Virus record (IMG/VR): IMGVR_UViG_3300033182_001174
Location: 1 to 57,445 of that record
Origin: a virus
Lineage: Duplodnaviria > Caudoviricetes
DNA length: 57,445 nt
Strand: one strand, 5' to 3'
The notes under the pieces were generated by a model, which had not been told where the DNA came from, ran no database searches, and saw nothing but the letters and a program-made list of their open reading frames with translations. Position numbers and translations under genes: made by a program. Position 1 is the first letter of the stretch; each line of letters opens with the position of its first letter. Below, in pieces: positions 3,397 to 33,748 of the stretch.

Positions 3397-3632
3397 AACA
3401 AGCACTAGTTTACGGCAATGGTGGACAAGAATCTGAACGAGCAGTCATGGTTCTTGAAGCATGTGGTCAAGATGTAAGACAATTCTTATTGGGTATTGAT
3501 TTCACCCATAAACAATTCAAAGCAGAATTTGGAGAAGAAGCAGAGTATCCACAAGTTGCTATTGGATTAGATCATCGTGGAACATTAAAAGAAACACTCA
3601 AGTACATGAGTGATAAAGGTATGTTTTTGTAA
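3393..3632 (+). CDS. Glutaredoxin-like protein lacking CxxC
   Basis: FKAEFG..AEYPQV resembles the thioredoxin-fold TFPQV region; active-site cysteines absent. Confidence 0.6.
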   Translation: MKQALVYGNGGQESERAVMVLEACGQDVRQFLLGIDFTHKQFKAEFGEEAEYPQVAIGLDHRGTLKETLKYMSDKGMFL

Positions 3633-3634
3633 AC

Positions 3635-3650
3635 TGTAACACAAGTTACA
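3635..3650. promoter_or_regulatory. NtcA-binding site
   Basis: TGTAACACAAGTTACA matches TGTA-N8-TACA, the cyanobacterial NtcA consensus. Confidence 0.8.
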
Positions 3651-3657
3651 AAAAAAC

Positions 3658-3686
3658 TTGACTATATAGTTCAACGGGTTTATAAT
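3658..3686 (+). promoter_or_regulatory. Sigma70-type promoter
   Basis: TTGACT-17 bp-TATAAT. Confidence 0.9.
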
Positions 3687-3705
3687 ACCCATACGTTCAT
3701 CCAAC

Positions 3706-3903
3706 ATGTTAACACTACTGTTGGCACTGACCTTAGCCCATCACGATCCGTCACCTTACGGGTGGCATATGTCTTGTGAAAGGTTCCTACAAAGAAAAAT
3801 TGAGATTCAGTTAGATGCAAACTTGGACTTTAGGTCTAAGGGAAATCTGATACTTTATCTCAAATCTAAAGTAGACGGTAAGTGTGAATCTGTGTTAACA
3901 TAG
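3706..3903 (+). CDS. Small protein with signal-peptide-like N-terminus, embedded in aptamer 1
   Basis: 65-aa ORF, MLTLLLALTLA N-terminus, Cys24 and Cys60. Confidence 0.65.
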   Translation: MLTLLLALTLAHHDPSPYGWHMSCERFLQRKIEIQLDANLDFRSKGNLILYLKSKVDGKCESVLT

Positions 3904-3938
3904 GACGCAAGTAAGTCGCGGAACGGAGCGTTCATCCC

Positions 3939-4100
3939 ATGTTTGATTTATTACTCTACTCTTCTATGCACTGCACTGATGCTGTTGATCTTATCAACCG
4001 TATTGATGCAAATAAAAGTGTAGATGTAATCATCAGGACTGAGGTGATTGAGACCGTAAAGGAAGCAACACCTGAGTGCAACTGGGACGCAAACGACTGA
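3939..4100 (+). CDS. Small protein embedded in aptamer 2
   Basis: 53-aa ORF MFDLLLYSSMHCTDA...PECNWDAND (not in the ORF track); Cys12 and Cys47. Confidence 0.6.
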   Translation: MFDLLLYSSMHCTDAVDLINRIDANKSVDVIIRTEVIETVKEATPECNWDAND

Positions 4101-4174
4101 AGGAACGGGAAAAAACGGATCCTGCGAAAGCAGAGAAGGTTCAATTTTCACCCTAGTATTTCAGGAGTAAACCA

Positions 4175-4339
4175 ATGAACACCTTAACACTCATCAAGAA
4201 GCAAATCGACAAGGCAGCAGCACTGCACGACGCACAAATCCTCGTTACCAAGTATCGTGGAGTTGATTGTAAAGTGCATGAGGCACCTGAGGAAACTCAC
4301 GGCACCTTCTGCTATCGTGGTCGCACTTACACCAAGTGA
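4175..4339 (+). CDS. DUF4278-type (YRG-motif) downstream peptide
   Basis: 54 aa MNTLTLIKKQ...KYRGV...CYRGRTYTK; AGGAG RBS; twin YRG motifs. Confidence 0.85.
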   Translation: MNTLTLIKKQIDKAAALHDAQILVTKYRGVDCKVHEAPEETHGTFCYRGRTYTK

Positions 4340-4368
4340 TTGCAAAACCAATTGAATAGTGTTAGAAT
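4340..4368 (+). promoter_or_regulatory. Sigma70-type promoter overlapping terminator
   Basis: TTGCAA-17 bp-TAGAAT. Confidence 0.5.
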
Positions 4369-4392
4369 GGGAGGGTTACCTCCCATTTTTTT
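4366..4392 (+). terminator. Rho-independent terminator
   Basis: ATGGGAGG-GTTA-CCTCCCAT followed by a T-tract. Confidence 0.85.
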
Positions 4393-4641
4393 ATGGAAAG
4401 AGATAAACTTAAACTGATAGTAAGGAATCTAAAACTGTTGGTTGAAGCTCTTGAATCAGAAGTATATTCAGATCCTGGTGCTTACACTGACAAACGGGAG
4501 AACTTTGATGATCCCATCCCTTACCCTGTAGCAGATTACGACGAAGTATTTAATGACGATGATGACTATGACGATAGTGCGACTAATCGTATAAATAATT
4601 CATACAGATTAGTCAACGACGATGATGGAGATGGATTATAG
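4393..4641 (+). CDS. Conserved cyanophage hypothetical protein (acidic C-terminus)
   Basis: KLKLIVRNLKLLVEALESEVYSD motif. Confidence 0.75.
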   Translation: MERDKLKLIVRNLKLLVEALESEVYSDPGAYTDKRENFDDPIPYPVADYDEVFNDDDDYDDSATNRINNSYRLVNDDDGDGL

Positions 4642-5125
4642 GATACTTGATGAGTATCCTCAATATAAAATATATCCAGATGGAAAAGTTTATTCAATTA
4701 AACTTAAAAAATATATTAACGGGCATAAAAATAAAAGAGGATACTATGCTTTTACCTTGTATGATTTAAAAGGAAAAAGAAAGCATAAGGGACTACATCA
4801 ACTTCTTGCTATGGCATTTATTCCAAATCCAAAGGGATATGAAATAGTCAGGCATCTTGATGATGACAAAGATAATAATTCTTTGTCTAATCTAAAATGG
4901 GGAACAATAAAAGAAAATATTGAAGATGCCATTAGGAATAATGTTTTTAAAATGCCAGACAACTCCAGAAAGTGGTTGGTTAAATCTCCTAGTGGTGATA
5001 TAATAGAAGTTGAAAACCTTTCAAAATTTTGTTCTGAAAATAATCTATCAAAACAAAATTTACATAAAACATACAAGGGTAATAGAAATCATCATAAAGA
5101 TTATAAATTGTTGAAAATGTTATGA
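4622..5125 (+). mobile_element. Free-standing HNH homing endonuclease
   Basis: HQLLAMAFIPNP..VRHLDDDKDNNSLSNLKW HNH motif; AT-rich; sits immediately upstream of thyX. Confidence 0.88.
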
Positions 5126-5763
5126 GTCAAGAAGTTAAACTGATTAGTGTCACCCCAGATGCAGAGAAACACATGGCCTACTGTGCCCGTGTGAGCAACC
5201 CAGCAAACCAAGAGAATGAAAAGTTCTCTGGTCTGCTCAAGTATTGTGTGAAGCATCAGCACTGGAGTATCTTTGAGCAGGCATACATGACCCTGGAAAT
5301 CAATACTACCAGGGGGGTGGCAGCTCAAGTGCTGCGCCACCGTTCGTTCACATATCAAGAATTTTCACAACGGTATGCTGATTCTTCCTTACTCGCGGAG
5401 ACGATCCCTCTACCTGAACTACGCAGGCAAGACACCAAGAATCGTCAGAATTCTATTGATGATATTGACCCGTTTGTCCGTCAAGAGTTTCAGATCAAAA
5501 TGCAAAAACACTTTGAAGAGGGAATGAAACTCTACAAAGAGATGCTTGATGCATCGATTGCAAAGGAGTGTGCTCGCTTTGTGCTTCCACTCGCCACACC
5601 CACAAGAATCTACATGACCGGTTCAGTGCGCTCATGGATTCATTATATCGATTTGCGTTCTGCAAACGGTACACAGAAGGAGCACATGGACATTGCTTTG
5701 GGTGCTAAGAAGATTTTTGTTGAGCAGTTTCCTGCCGTTGCTGAAGCAATGGAATGGATTTAA
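5122..5763 (+). CDS. thyX: Flavin-dependent thymidylate synthase
   Basis: HWSIFEQ, RHRSFTYQEFSQRY ThyX motif, KECARFVLP. Confidence 0.96.
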   Translation: MSQEVKLISVTPDAEKHMAYCARVSNPANQENEKFSGLLKYCVKHQHWSIFEQAYMTLEINTTRGVAAQVLRHRSFTYQEFSQRYADSSLLAETIPLPELRRQDTKNRQNSIDDIDPFVRQEFQIKMQKHFEEGMKLYKEMLDASIAKECARFVLPLATPTRIYMTGSVRSWIHYIDLRSANGTQKEHMDIALGAKKIFVEQFPAVAEAMEWI

Positions 5764-5790: not shown

Positions 5791-6042
5791 ATGCCAACGT
5801 ACCCCGTTATTAATAAGAAGACAAAAGAAACAAAAACTCTTAGCATGACCATGAAAGAGTATTGTGATTGGAAAGACGAAAACCCAGATTGGGATAAGGA
5901 CTGGTCACAAGGTTGTGCTGGAATCGGTAACGAGTTTAGATGGACAGGAGAAGCAAAATCTAGCGGTTGGAACGAAGTTCTGGACCGTGCATCCAAACAA
6001 CCGGGTGCTACGGTTCGTAAACACCGCGACTACTCCTTCTAA
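5791..6042 (+). CDS. Conserved T4-like hypothetical protein (FmdB-like N-terminus)
   Basis: MPTYPV start; conserved position upstream of phoH; TAAATA at 5764. Confidence 0.75.
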   Translation: MPTYPVINKKTKETKTLSMTMKEYCDWKDENPDWDKDWSQGCAGIGNEFRWTGEAKSSGWNEVLDRASKQPGATVRKHRDYSF

Positions 6043-6051
6043 ATTTTCCTT

Positions 6052-6807
6052 ATGCCAGCAAAAAGAAAGTCCCAGTCTCCTATTGTTCCATTTGGAATGA
6101 GCAACAAACACATGAAAAGAAAGAAACCAATCAATTCAGATTTAATGAAGACGATTGATCCTCTTACAGAGAATCAACAAGAACTCTTCCGTTGCTATAA
6201 GAATGATCAGAACATTGTTGCCTATGGTGCAGCAGGTACTGGTAAAACTTTTATCACTCTCTACAATGCCTTGAGAGATGTGATGGACATGAAGAGTCCC
6301 TATGATAAGATCTACATCGTCAGGTCTCTTGTAGCAACCAGAGAGATTGGATTCCTTCCTGGAGATCATGAGGACAAGTCCTCTCTTTACCAGATTCCTT
6401 ATAAGAATATGGTGAAGTTTATGTTTGAGATGCCCACCGATACAGATTTTGAAATGCTGTATGGTAATCTCAAAGCACAAGGAACTATTTCTTTTTGGTC
6501 TACATCTTTCATTCGTGGTACAACTCTTGACAATTGTATTATTATTGTTGATGAGTTTCAGAACTTGAACTTCCACGAACTTGATAGTATAATTACAAGG
6601 GTTGGAGAGAACTCTAAGATTATGTTCTGTGGTGATGCCACTCAATCTGATTTGGTAAAAACAAATGAGAAGAACGGTATCATTGATTTCATGCGTATTC
6701 TTAGAACAATGCCATCTGTCGATTGTATCGAATTTGGTGTAGATGATATTGTACGTTCTGGTCTCTGCAAAGAATATCTTGTTGCGAAAACGGAAATGAA
6801 TTTATGA
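6052..6807 (+). CDS. phoH: PhoH-family ATPase
   Basis: GAAGTGKT Walker A, REIGFLPG, RGTTL, DEFQN, GDATQSD. Confidence 0.96.
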   Translation: MPAKRKSQSPIVPFGMSNKHMKRKKPINSDLMKTIDPLTENQQELFRCYKNDQNIVAYGAAGTGKTFITLYNALRDVMDMKSPYDKIYIVRSLVATREIGFLPGDHEDKSSLYQIPYKNMVKFMFEMPTDTDFEMLYGNLKAQGTISFWSTSFIRGTTLDNCIIIVDEFQNLNFHELDSIITRVGENSKIMFCGDATQSDLVKTNEKNGIIDFMRILRTMPSVDCIEFGVDDIVRSGLCKEYLVAKTEMNL

Positions 6808-33270: not shown

Positions 33271-33355
33271 GGGAGTGTGGCGGAATCGGTAGACGCACCA
33301 GACTTAAAATCTGTTGATTGTAAAGATCGTGGGGGTTCAAATCCCCCCACTCCCA
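33271..33355 (+). tRNA. tRNA-Leu(UAA)
   Basis: GGGAGTG/CACTCCC acceptor stem, anticodon TAA (33305-33307), long variable arm, GGTTCAAATCC T-arm. Confidence 0.95.
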
Positions 33356-33674: not shown

Positions 33675-33748
33675 GCCAACTTAGCTCAGCTGGATAGAGC
33701 AGGGTTTTTGTAAAGCTCAGGTCATCGGTTCAAGTCCGATAGTTGGCT
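33675..33748 (+). tRNA. tRNA-Thr(UGU)
   Basis: GCCAACT/AGTTGGC acceptor stem, anticodon loop TT-TGT-AA, GGTTCAAGTCC T-arm. Confidence 0.95.

Follow-up and report, generated by a model that had tools for sequence, protein, structure and literature searches.

The window analysed here is the whole 57,445-nucleotide (nt) stretch of DNA held in IMG/VR virus record IMGVR_UViG_3300033182_001174 (Duplodnaviria; Caudoviricetes). On its + strand, between positions 3694 and 4107, lie two units of the form CGTTC-A-stem...stem-CGCAA...GGAACG that resemble the aptamers of glutamine riboswitches, and in each of them the stem closes around an entire open reading frame (ORF). This layout had been put forward in a preliminary description of the DNA and was confirmed base for base. 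The two nested frames (ORF1 and ORF2) are followed by a third small gene, ORF3, outside the units.

The comparisons below draw on two samples. The first, referred to as the listed loci, consists of 125 loci: 120 IMG/VR loci, out of at least that many that contain one exact 21-nt core word, together with four named phages and the window itself. The second consists of 63 loci picked by similarity to the ORF2 protein and not by the RNA word, and it covers relatives of at least 55% identity only. Units whose hairpin carries no ORF are called compact.

Nested genes in two aptamer-like units

The two units are made up of the following parts.

3694-3698, + strand: unit 1 pocket helix (P1/pseudoknot), 5' strand CGUUC; pairs with 3921-3925 in the minimum-energy fold and matches Rfam consensus positions
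3700-3715, + strand: unit 1 closing hairpin, 5' strand, made of UCC, a 3-nt bulge and AUGUUAACAC, which includes the start codon (direct reading, fold)
3706-3903, + strand: ORF1, 65 amino acids (aa), a two-cysteine small protein (phrog_6471) inside the unit 1 hairpin
3892-3905, + strand: unit 1 closing hairpin, 3' strand, made of GUGUUAACAU, A and GGA, with the UAG stop (3901-3903) inside it (direct reading, fold)
3906-3920, + strand: unit 1 core/linking strand CGCAAGUAAGUCGCG (as DNA, CGCAAGTAAGTCGCG), placed by alignment to RF01739 and RF01704
3921-3925, + strand: unit 1 pocket helix, 3' strand GAACG (direct reading, minimum-energy fold)
3925-3928, + strand: GGAG, the Shine-Dalgarno sequence (SD) of ORF2, 10 nt upstream of its AUG (linker comparison)
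3929-3933, + strand: unit 2 pocket (pseudoknot) helix, 5' strand CGUUC, between the ORF2 SD and AUG; invariant in 109 of 109 distinct ORF-bearing units
3935-3939, + strand: unit 2 closing hairpin, 5' strand UCCCA, the last A being the A of the start codon (covariation)
3939-4100, + strand: ORF2, 53 aa, a two-cysteine small protein (phrog_504) and paralog of ORF1, inside the unit 2 hairpin
4083-4087, + strand: unit 2 closing hairpin, 3' strand UGGGA (reading, fold, covariation)
4088-4096, + strand: unit 2 linking strand CGCAAACGA, read as ORF2 codons yet nearly invariant (columns invariant or at least 90%)
4097-4102, + strand: unit 2 glutamine-II-type P2 helix, 5' strand CUGAAG, with the ORF2 stop UGA (4098-4100) inside it
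4103-4107, + strand: unit 2 pocket helix, 3' strand GAACG; invariant in 109 of 109

In unit 1 the junction A is position 3699, and TCC at 3700-3702 pairs with GGA at 3903-3905. The perfect complementarity claimed earlier between ATGTTAACAC (3706-3715) and GTGTTAACAT (3892-3901) can be read directly from the letters. The ORF1 start codon thereby falls within the 5' stem strand and the TAG stop (3901-3903) within the 3' stem strand. Folded alone in RNAfold, unit 1 adopts exactly this architecture (z = -4.33). The CGC of its linking strand corresponds to C17-G18-C19 in the solved glutamine-II structure (PMC6698751). ORF1 has no SD and a leader of only about 13 nt from the predicted transcript start, and the candidate for a P2 helix in this unit is a single 3-bp CGC/GCG pairing.

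Unit 2 starts three bases after unit 1, the units standing head to tail and 3-4 nt apart, with its junction A at 3934. The first G of the ORF2 SD also ends the unit 1 pocket helix, and nothing lies between this SD and its start codon but CGUUC (pocket strand), the junction A and one strand of the stem (order SD, CGUUC, A, UCCC, AUG). The preliminary description had the stem as TCCCA(TG). The pairing of TCCCA with TGGGA around a 53-aa ORF stood, but the T and G of the ATG are unpaired (T:C, G:A). The end of ORF2, TGG GAC GCA AAC GAC TGA (W-D-A-N-D-stop), does consist of aptamer core nucleotides as described; the closing stem is followed by CGCAAACGACTGAAG and then GAACG (4103-4107). The minimum-energy fold of the window's unit 2 contains the closing stem (z = -3.22). 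Stops are placed within the stem or core without a spacer.

The frames behave as genes across the listed loci. An ATG 3-15 nt after CGTTCA opens a frame that runs to a stop within -18 to +10 of CGCAA in all 32 expanded unit 1 alleles and in 109 of 112 expanded unit 2 alleles; of the remaining three unit 2 inserts, two are without an ATG and one reads on. The ATG stands 4 nt after CGTTCA in 103 of 112 copies of unit 2 and 24 of 32 of unit 1, and unit 2 inserts measure 153, 156, 159 or 162 nt in 83 of 112. The window's proteins match PHROG families end to end, ORF1 with phrog_6471 (1e-30) and ORF2 with phrog_504 (2e-22). Median pairwise ratios of nonsynonymous to synonymous substitution (dN/dS) were 0.18 for ORF1 (165 usable pairs) and 0.41 for ORF2 (764 usable of 1500 sampled), and entropy by codon position runs 3 > 1 > 2. 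By these measures the nested ORFs are under purifying selection, in line with the earlier claim that they are real coding genes.

Each of the two protein families carries two nearly invariant cysteines, and the families align cysteine to cysteine in hhalign (95%, E = 4e-8), which marks ORF1 and ORF2 as paralogs. AlphaFold (AF2) predicts a helical hairpin between the cysteines, with a confidence (pLDDT) of 79.8 for ORF1 and 83.6 for ORF2. The WDAND tail of ORF2, dictated by the RNA core, has low AF2 confidence, and the ORF2 codons within the core show almost no synonymous change. No Pfam family matched the nested proteins, Foldseek against the PDB gave no match at E <= 0.001, and the ESM Atlas returned viral hypothetical clusters only (scores 0.86-0.88). 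A pattern-based scan of one genome for each of 185,579 prokaryote species gave 12 pattern matches and 0 confirmed cellular relatives, and there is no second copy in the window's 57-kb record.

The ORF2 SD is tied to the presence of the gene. The inter-unit linker is GAG in 109 of the 112 listed loci whose unit 2 carries an ORF and in none of the 8 whose unit 2 is compact; in all eight of these it is GAT, GAA or GGT (Fisher p = 2e-10, uncorrected for relatedness). This observation bears on whether the inserts might be structured non-coding RNA domains and not translated genes. Both units do fold better than shuffled sequences, as the z-scores above indicate. Nonetheless, frames are open in 141 of 144 inserts with dN/dS below 1, insert lengths differ by multiples of three, the products have two conserved cysteines and a confident AF2 helical hairpin, and the SD is present only when the ORF is. 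RNAalifold on 30 of the 32 ORF-bearing unit 1 sequences (L041 and L054 were omitted as too divergent) found no conserved structure within the ORF. We give the non-coding explanation next to no credence.

Covariation of the closing helix

The preliminary description had proposed stem covariation as a check, and the closing helix does covary across the ORF in both units. For unit 2 we aligned the 109 distinct ORF-bearing sequences with MAFFT and supplied a hand-written structure. The four inner pairs (columns 9-12 with 247-250) are 99.5% paired, and 4 of 4 have changed on both sides (n = 109); one pair, for example, is U:A in 104, C:G in 4 and G:C in 1, and another is C:G in 80, U:A in 18 and U:G in 7. 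Pairs changed on both sides number 6, compared with 2.2 +/- 0.8 in shuffles (0 of 500 reach 6), and doubly changed cells number 30 as against 5.6. Paired cells amount to 88.9%, and to at most 61.8% when the 3' partners are slid.

In unit 1, all 28 distinct stems are paired at the third position, 16 of them by C:G and 12 by T:A. Covarying positions here include the stop codon, where TAG, TGA and TAA alternate with compensating changes just 5' of the ATG. An offset-based count placed the cognate stem partners ahead of permuted ones in 5000 of 5000 trials for both units, and one locus (L059) has a wholly different 8-bp stem, GAUUAUGG/CCAUAAUC. The closing stem keeps its pairing across 140-230 nt by compensatory changes; it is selected across the ORF.

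RNAfold minimum-energy structures contain the closing stem in 32 of 32 distinct copies of unit 1 and 81 of 109 of unit 2, and the pocket helix in 32 of 32 copies of unit 1. From the same 30 unit 1 sequences, RNAalifold recovered the pocket helix and a GAC/GUC mini-hairpin and not the closing stem; MAFFT misaligns the bulged stems.

These data speak to two other accounts of the locus. One is a local, circularly permuted aptamer spanning 3903-3939, to which unit 1 would contribute its 3' half and unit 2 its 5' half; GAACG-GAG-CGUUC would form a capped helix, and the outer halves would not matter. The minimum-energy fold of the whole transcript favours it, in that unit 1 GAACG pairs with unit 2 CGUUC there. 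However, among the 29 distinct loci with ORFs in both units, all five first pairs are long-range in 18 (unit 1) and 27 (unit 2), compared with local pairing in 1 of 29; pair 3 would be C:A in 11 of 29; and compact alleles have the ordinary topology. We rejected this arrangement on covariation, the stem changes tracking the long-range partners, and leave it only a sliver of probability.

The other account holds that ORF-bearing units have ceased to be riboswitches, their halves being kept as recombination arms for the exchange of cassettes in the manner of PeSL (promoter/stem-loop) elements, or simply as coding and SD sequence. Alleles do differ exactly between the conserved arms, a covarying palindrome surrounds the -10 box upstream, and for T4-like phages a role of PeSL elements in shuffling has been proposed (PMC4122927). 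Arms used in recombination have to be identical in sequence but need not pair, yet compensatory changes across the ORF maintain the closing helix; in addition, all 109 sequences have the same non-coding CGUUC between SD and AUG, and third codon positions in the core do not drift. On balance we regard this account as quite improbable.

ORF-less alleles and the riboswitch class

The region is common to 377 cyanomyovirus records and is 60-80% identical in 289 of them. Of 50,697 phage records, 421 contain the 40-nt junction between the units (3902-3941), a single time per genome, and in 360 of these it is at least 95% identical; by name the 421 are Synechococcus (344), Cyanophage (63), Prochlorococcus (10) and Marine (4). 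Both anchors of unit 1 are present in 123 of the 125 listed loci, and the stretch from CGTTCA to CGCAA measures 12-47 nt in 91 and 199-234 nt in 32. For unit 2 the anchors are present in 120, with a stretch of 12-27 nt in 8 and 140-203 nt in 112. No hairpin of intermediate length was found in either unit among the listed loci. Written as unit 1/unit 2, the combinations are compact/ORF in 79, ORF/ORF in 31, compact/compact in 7 and ORF/compact in 1, with alleles differing exactly between the conserved arms. Close relatives can differ in this respect: L125 has an ORF2 94% identical to that of the window and a compact unit 1.

The loci chosen by ORF2 protein agree with this arrangement. Strict patterns identified both aptamer halves in 57 of the 63, three had variant halves (L154, L156 and L157) and three were cut by a contig end. 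None of the 60 ORF2 relatives with readable flanks lay outside an aptamer, among relatives of at least 55% identity. In the three variants, the CUGAAG of unit 2 is replaced by CCCAAG, whereby ORF2 loses its usual stop and the frame continues; L156 and L157 have no unit 1 upstream and are single ORF-bearing units.

Several cultured phages carry the different alleles. Bellamy has both units compact and without an ORF, with hairpins CCCA-CA-TGGG and CCC-TTCG-GGG; S-SM2 has a compact unit 1 and an ORF-bearing unit 2; and Syn9 and Syn19 have ORFs in both units, with different yet complementary stems (TCTCATG/CATGAGA and TCCTATG/CATGGGA). Rfam models were run on 20 of 124 loci, the gathering scores being 35 for RF01739 (glutamine-I, glnA RNA) and 33 for RF01704 (glutamine-II, Downstream-peptide). 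Four of five doubly compact loci pass the RF01739 threshold (43.6, 42.9, 40.3 and 38.4 bits), the alignments spanning both units, and one single unit passes RF01704 (34.0 vs 33). Bellamy unit 2 scores 34.5 bits against RF01739 (threshold 35; E = 1.2e-4), S-SM2 unit 1 scores 29.8 bits against RF01704 and 28.5 against RF01739, and the single compact units of L019 reach 32.8 (unit 2) and 19.1 bits (unit 1). None of 15 loci with an ORF in a unit reaches a gathering score.

We attribute the invisibility of the window's units to Rfam to models that cannot span an insert of 150-230 nt. A covariance model based on 67 ORF-less units (7 copies of unit 2 and 60 copies of unit 1, the latter with loops no longer than 24 nt) and run on the window with filters off behaved likewise, as it too cannot span the ORF: in unit 1 it matched the 3' half only (3851-3927, 28 bits, E = 2e-5), to which it attached a spurious 5' partner close by, and unit 2 gave no match.

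Parts of both known types can be recognised. In the solved structure, binding of glutamine stabilises the CGUUC/GAACG helix, and the variable hairpin lies outside the conserved pocket and was UUCG-capped for crystallisation; it is named P2 in glutamine-I and P1 in glutamine-II RNAs (PMC6698751). Rfam alignments make the helix that holds the ORF here the short hairpin right after CGUUCA, so the preliminary description had placed the ORFs correctly, at the loop of the short variable hairpin, under its type I name (P2, as opposed to P1 in type II; PMC6698751). The CGUUC/GAACG pocket helix is present in both units. The variable hairpin directly follows the junction A, and its helix covaries while its loop is an ORF instead of about 4 nt. 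The linking strand carries CGCAA in both units and is closer to type II (CGC A) than to type I (CGG AA). A glutamine-II P2 helix brackets GGAACG in unit 2. The third hairpin of glutamine-I is absent, the Rfam alignments putting 4-6 nt in place of 10-13 consensus positions. Finally, the units form the 5' leader of a nitrogen-related gene (gifB/DUF4278), ORF3 beginning 67 nt after unit 2.

Glutamine-II RNAs of marine picocyanobacteria thus share with the phage module the CGUUC/GGAACG pocket helix, the variable hairpin after it, the CGC linking strand, a P2 that brackets GGAACG with its 3' strand adjoining the SD, and a DUF4278 gene downstream. They differ in that the phage hairpin loop is a translated gene of 49-75 codons and not about 4 nt, in that the phage module is tandem, phage-encoded and behind an early-type promoter, with a long P2 loop in some alleles, and in that the window's own units escape the Rfam models. 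The glutamine-I type offers a P1 of CGUUC/GAACG, a P2 hairpin, GAAGGAACG and tandem copies (PMC2864571), and the doubly compact phage alleles pass its gathering score; the phage units nonetheless lack the third hairpin of its three-way junction, have CGCAA for CGGAA, and carry ORFs in P2. The matches of ORF-less alleles of both units to RF01739 and RF01704 support the original assignment to glutamine-riboswitch-type aptamers; binding of glutamine itself is presumed from that likeness.

A phage-specific variant class could have placed a ligand other than L-glutamine on the shared scaffold. Variant riboswitches with altered specificity are known in other classes, and the phage units depart from both Rfam consensuses (CGCAA, no third hairpin, 19-30 bits for unit 1). 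Yet every ligand contact named for the glutamine-II aptamer can be matched in both units, C1 and G2 by the CG of CGUUC, G18 and C19 by the GC of CGC, and C39 and G40 by the CG of GAACG, and the downstream gene belongs to a family tied to glutamine riboswitches in cyanobacteria. We therefore think another ligand improbable.

Transcription unit and proposed coupling of fold to translation

Outside the two units, the locus has four further features.

3658-3686, + strand: sigma-70-type (early-type) promoter, TTGACT, 17 nt, TATAAT (11 of 12 matches)
4159-4167, + strand: 3' strand of P2, UUUCAG (4159-4164), overlapping the ORF3 SD AGGAG (4163-4167)
4175-4339, + strand: ORF3, 54 aa, DUF4278 (IF17/GifB-like), phrog_545; the usual gene type downstream of glutamine riboswitches
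4366-4392, + strand: intrinsic terminator, a GGGAGG-GUUA-CCUCCC stem (10 bp in the fold) followed by U7 (direct reading; hairpin in the minimum-energy fold; not listed by the scanner)

The -10 hexamer ends 8 nt before the C of CGTTC, which puts the predicted start of the transcript on the first aptamer nucleotide or beside it. A promoter of the form TTGAnn-N16-18-TAnnnT ends 7-9 nt before CGTTCA in 87 of 119 listed loci, and a hairpin with at least T5 follows ORF3 within 90 nt in 70 of 109. Judged by these signals, this T4-like marine cyanophage carries at 3658-4392 a self-contained transcription unit of early type, comprising promoter, aptamer 1, aptamer 2, DUF4278 gene and terminator.

The -10 hexamer is itself enclosed in a perfect inverted repeat (3674-3692, GGGTTTATAATACCC). 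Arms of at least 5 nt occur in 103 of 119 listed loci, a count made without a chance control, and the palindrome covaries, as its arm sequences vary by locus (GGTCTAT/ATAGACC, TGGTA/TACCA, AGGGT/ACCCT). Its role may be that of an operator or of a PeSL-like promoter/stem-loop element (PMC4122927).

ORF3 of the window matches Pfam DUF4278 (PF14105) at E = 4e-4 with 21.1 bits, below the cut-off of 25.3. Of its relatives, 55 of 60 match DUF4278 at E <= 0.01 (best 2.3e-7), and two YRG motifs are invariant or nearly so in the family. The ORF3 profile found no match among PDB sequences at E <= 1. Two subtypes of the DUF4278 gene stand behind the same leader, one of 54-55 aa (MNTL..KKQI, with two YRG motifs) and one of 47-48 aa (MTTITYRG).

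The ORF3 SD is linked by pairing to the 3' end of unit 2. Rfam RF01704 aligns the tail of a compact, ORF-less unit 2 as the glutamine-II P2 helix, and the two strands change together: in the 113 listed loci whose SD can be recognised, all 33 copies of CTAAAG are accompanied by CTTTAG and none by TTCAG, while the 79 copies of CTGAAG are accompanied by TTCAG in 51, TTTAG in 26 and another sequence in 2. The spacer from GGAACG to the SD is 20-28 nt in 93 listed loci and 45-55 nt in 20. The long form, seen in the window (4113-4141) and in L051, L064, L068, L086 and L109, holds a hairpin with a GAAA cap (GUAA in L064) and compensatory changes (CUGC/GCAG, CAGC/GCUG, CACC/GGUG), an extra conserved structure within the P2 loop.

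Some features lie further away. An HNH_3 endonuclease gene (4622-5125, E = 1.8e-7) separates the riboswitch module from thyX (5122-5763; Thy1, E = 7e-48), and homing or HNH endonucleases are annotated at the equivalent place in two other phages. In L058, the cyanophage RNA motifs wcaG (633-732, 80.7 bits) and PhotoRC-II (6027-6124, 55.7 bits) share the module's contig. The window also has two tRNA genes, at 33271-33355 (62.1 bits, long variable arm) and 33675-33748 (59.9 bits).

We consider the locus best, and probably correctly, explained as tandem glutamine-type aptamers in which each hairpin loop has been replaced by a translated two-cysteine gene, with fold and nested translation mutually exclusive. 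From the geometry, the 5' strands of the aptamers are the start regions and the stops lie in stem or core, so an initiating or terminating ribosome and a folded aptamer could not share the RNA. Glutamine would stabilise the pocket helices, as in the solved type II aptamer. The folded aptamer would then bury the start regions of ORF1 and ORF2 and block initiation on the nested gene, and a ribosome initiating, reading or terminating on that gene would hold the aptamer open. By analogy with the cyanobacterial switches, glutamine would favour translation of the DUF4278 gene. Since the ORF2 stop lies inside the P2 helix, a terminating ribosome should open P2 and free the ORF3 SD. The leader would in sum convert the host glutamine level and translation status into a ratio of nested proteins to IF17-like protein. 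The analysis shows the anatomy, the kinship with ORF-less riboswitches, the covariation, the coding constraint and the wide distribution; that glutamine binds, in which direction it regulates, and whether the host's glutamine synthetase is affected are matters that we infer. The preliminary description had spoken of a riboswitch controlling genes inside itself; its nested ORFs hold up, and the phrase tells at most half the story, having missed the DUF4278 gene downstream.

The ORFs could instead merely fill insertion-tolerant loops, exerting no control and receiving no feedback, in a tandem glutamine switch that serves the DUF4278 gene only. Consistent with this, the hairpin loop is outside the conserved ligand pocket (PMC6698751), compact and ORF alleles swap freely among close relatives such as L125 (94% ORF2 identity, compact unit 1), and the ORF interiors have no conserved RNA structure. 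However, no separate initiation region comes with the ORFs: the SD is external to the aptamer, and pocket strand and stem make up the 10 nt from it to the AUG. The ATG is fixed 4 nt after CGTTCA in most loci (103 of 112 and 24 of 32, as above), and the stops lie inside stem or core with no spacer, where the 30S footprint would, on geometry, be incompatible with the fold. Idle inserts therefore seem to us unlikely, although they retain a real share of the probability.

Several observations weigh against mutually exclusive folding and translation in glutamine-type aptamers. The listed loci were chosen by an exact 21-nt core word, which makes conservation of that word circular, and their sequences are related, meaning that counts are not independent events. 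The CGUUC/GAACG pocket helix is invariant in 109 of 109 copies of unit 2; a helix that never varies gains no covariation support of its own and loses none. RNAfold has it in just 38 of 109 unit 2 sequences, the whole-transcript fold pairs unit 1 GAACG with unit 2 CGUUC instead, and of 109 unit 2 sequences only 47 pair the U of the AUG and only 49 its G. The window itself has no Rfam match at gathering thresholds, nor at E <= 10 over 3600-4200; the ORF-bearing loci of Syn9 and Syn19 have none at E <= 1. Single compact units mostly fall just below gathering (32.8-34.5 bits for unit 2, 19.1-29.8 for unit 1). The units have CGCAA where RF01739 has CGGAA and lack its third hairpin, which leaves the identity of the ligand an assumption from likeness. 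The published sign for the class is ON with glutamine, whereas the geometry here predicts OFF for the nested ORFs. Metatranscriptome contigs from four RNA libraries in two studies map to 3716-4407 (for example 3920-4067, with 1 differing letter) and speak neither for nor against expression; such contigs do not prove transcription, as they give no ends or strand, DNA carry-over is possible and conserved cores attract contigs of relatives.

A more ambitious reading is a translation-gated reciprocal relay. At low glutamine the aptamers would remain open, with ribosomes entering at their 5' strands to make the nested two-cysteine proteins; at high glutamine the aptamers would shut over the start sites and the IF17-like gene would be released, with ribosomes terminating on ORF2 passing translation on. 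Because genes interrupt the fold, most phage riboswitches of this kind would have been missed by covariance-model surveys. We put this forward tentatively, as a possibility somewhat less likely than not.

Much of the setting is already known. Glutamine riboswitches precede gifB/DUF4278 genes (IF17/GifB, IF17-like) in cyanobacteria, where glutamine turns translation on (PMC6212724); tandem copies were reported for glnA RNAs by Weinberg et al. 2010 (PMC2864571); and glutamine aptamers have been noted in T4-like cyanophages (PMC9964418, PMC9602691). A 2017 survey gives only two glutamine aptamers in cyanophage genomes, with the suggestion that phages rarely use riboswitches (PMC5473149), and riboswitches are elsewhere called rare in phages (PMC9004378). 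Aptamer class, tandem use, the DUF4278 link and the presence in T4-like cyanophages are thus not new. A whole gene in an aptamer helix seems undescribed: the preliminary description had not recognised the architecture from described systems, and the literature searched likewise yielded no gene inside an aptamer helix.

The nearest parallels lie in other kinds of RNA. In attenuation leader peptides and the Salmonella mgtA leader with mgtL, ribosome occupancy of a leader ORF competes with structures that govern the downstream gene. There the ORFs act as short sensors, have no known function as proteins and sit between alternative hairpins, whereas the phage ORFs encode conserved proteins of 53-66 aa that replace the loop of an aptamer helix and have start and stop codons forming that helix. 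Protein genes also occur in the peripheral loops of group I and group II introns, where closure across the ORF is long-range; these introns share with the phage units a terminal loop of a structured RNA that tolerates a whole gene. Intron ORFs are homing endonucleases, maturases and reverse transcriptases serving intron mobility, and their host RNA is a ribozyme; here it would be a metabolite sensor.

The helix of a metabolite-binding aptamer can, on this evidence, carry a whole translated gene whose start and stop codons form the helix, an arrangement that would couple ligand sensing and translation. It also explains a blind spot of surveys, the junction being present in 421 phage records and Rfam detection succeeding only when both units are ORF-less (4 of 5 vs 0 of 15). 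Cultured phages provide a natural allelic series, from Bellamy (compact/compact) through S-SM2 (compact/ORF) to Syn9 and Syn19 (ORF/ORF). Cyanophages may sense host glutamine early in infection to dose an IF17-like protein together with a phage-only family of small proteins. If the relay is true, whole genes would serve as the riboswitch loops of one 700-nt phage RNA, which would in this way compute on the nitrogen state of the host.

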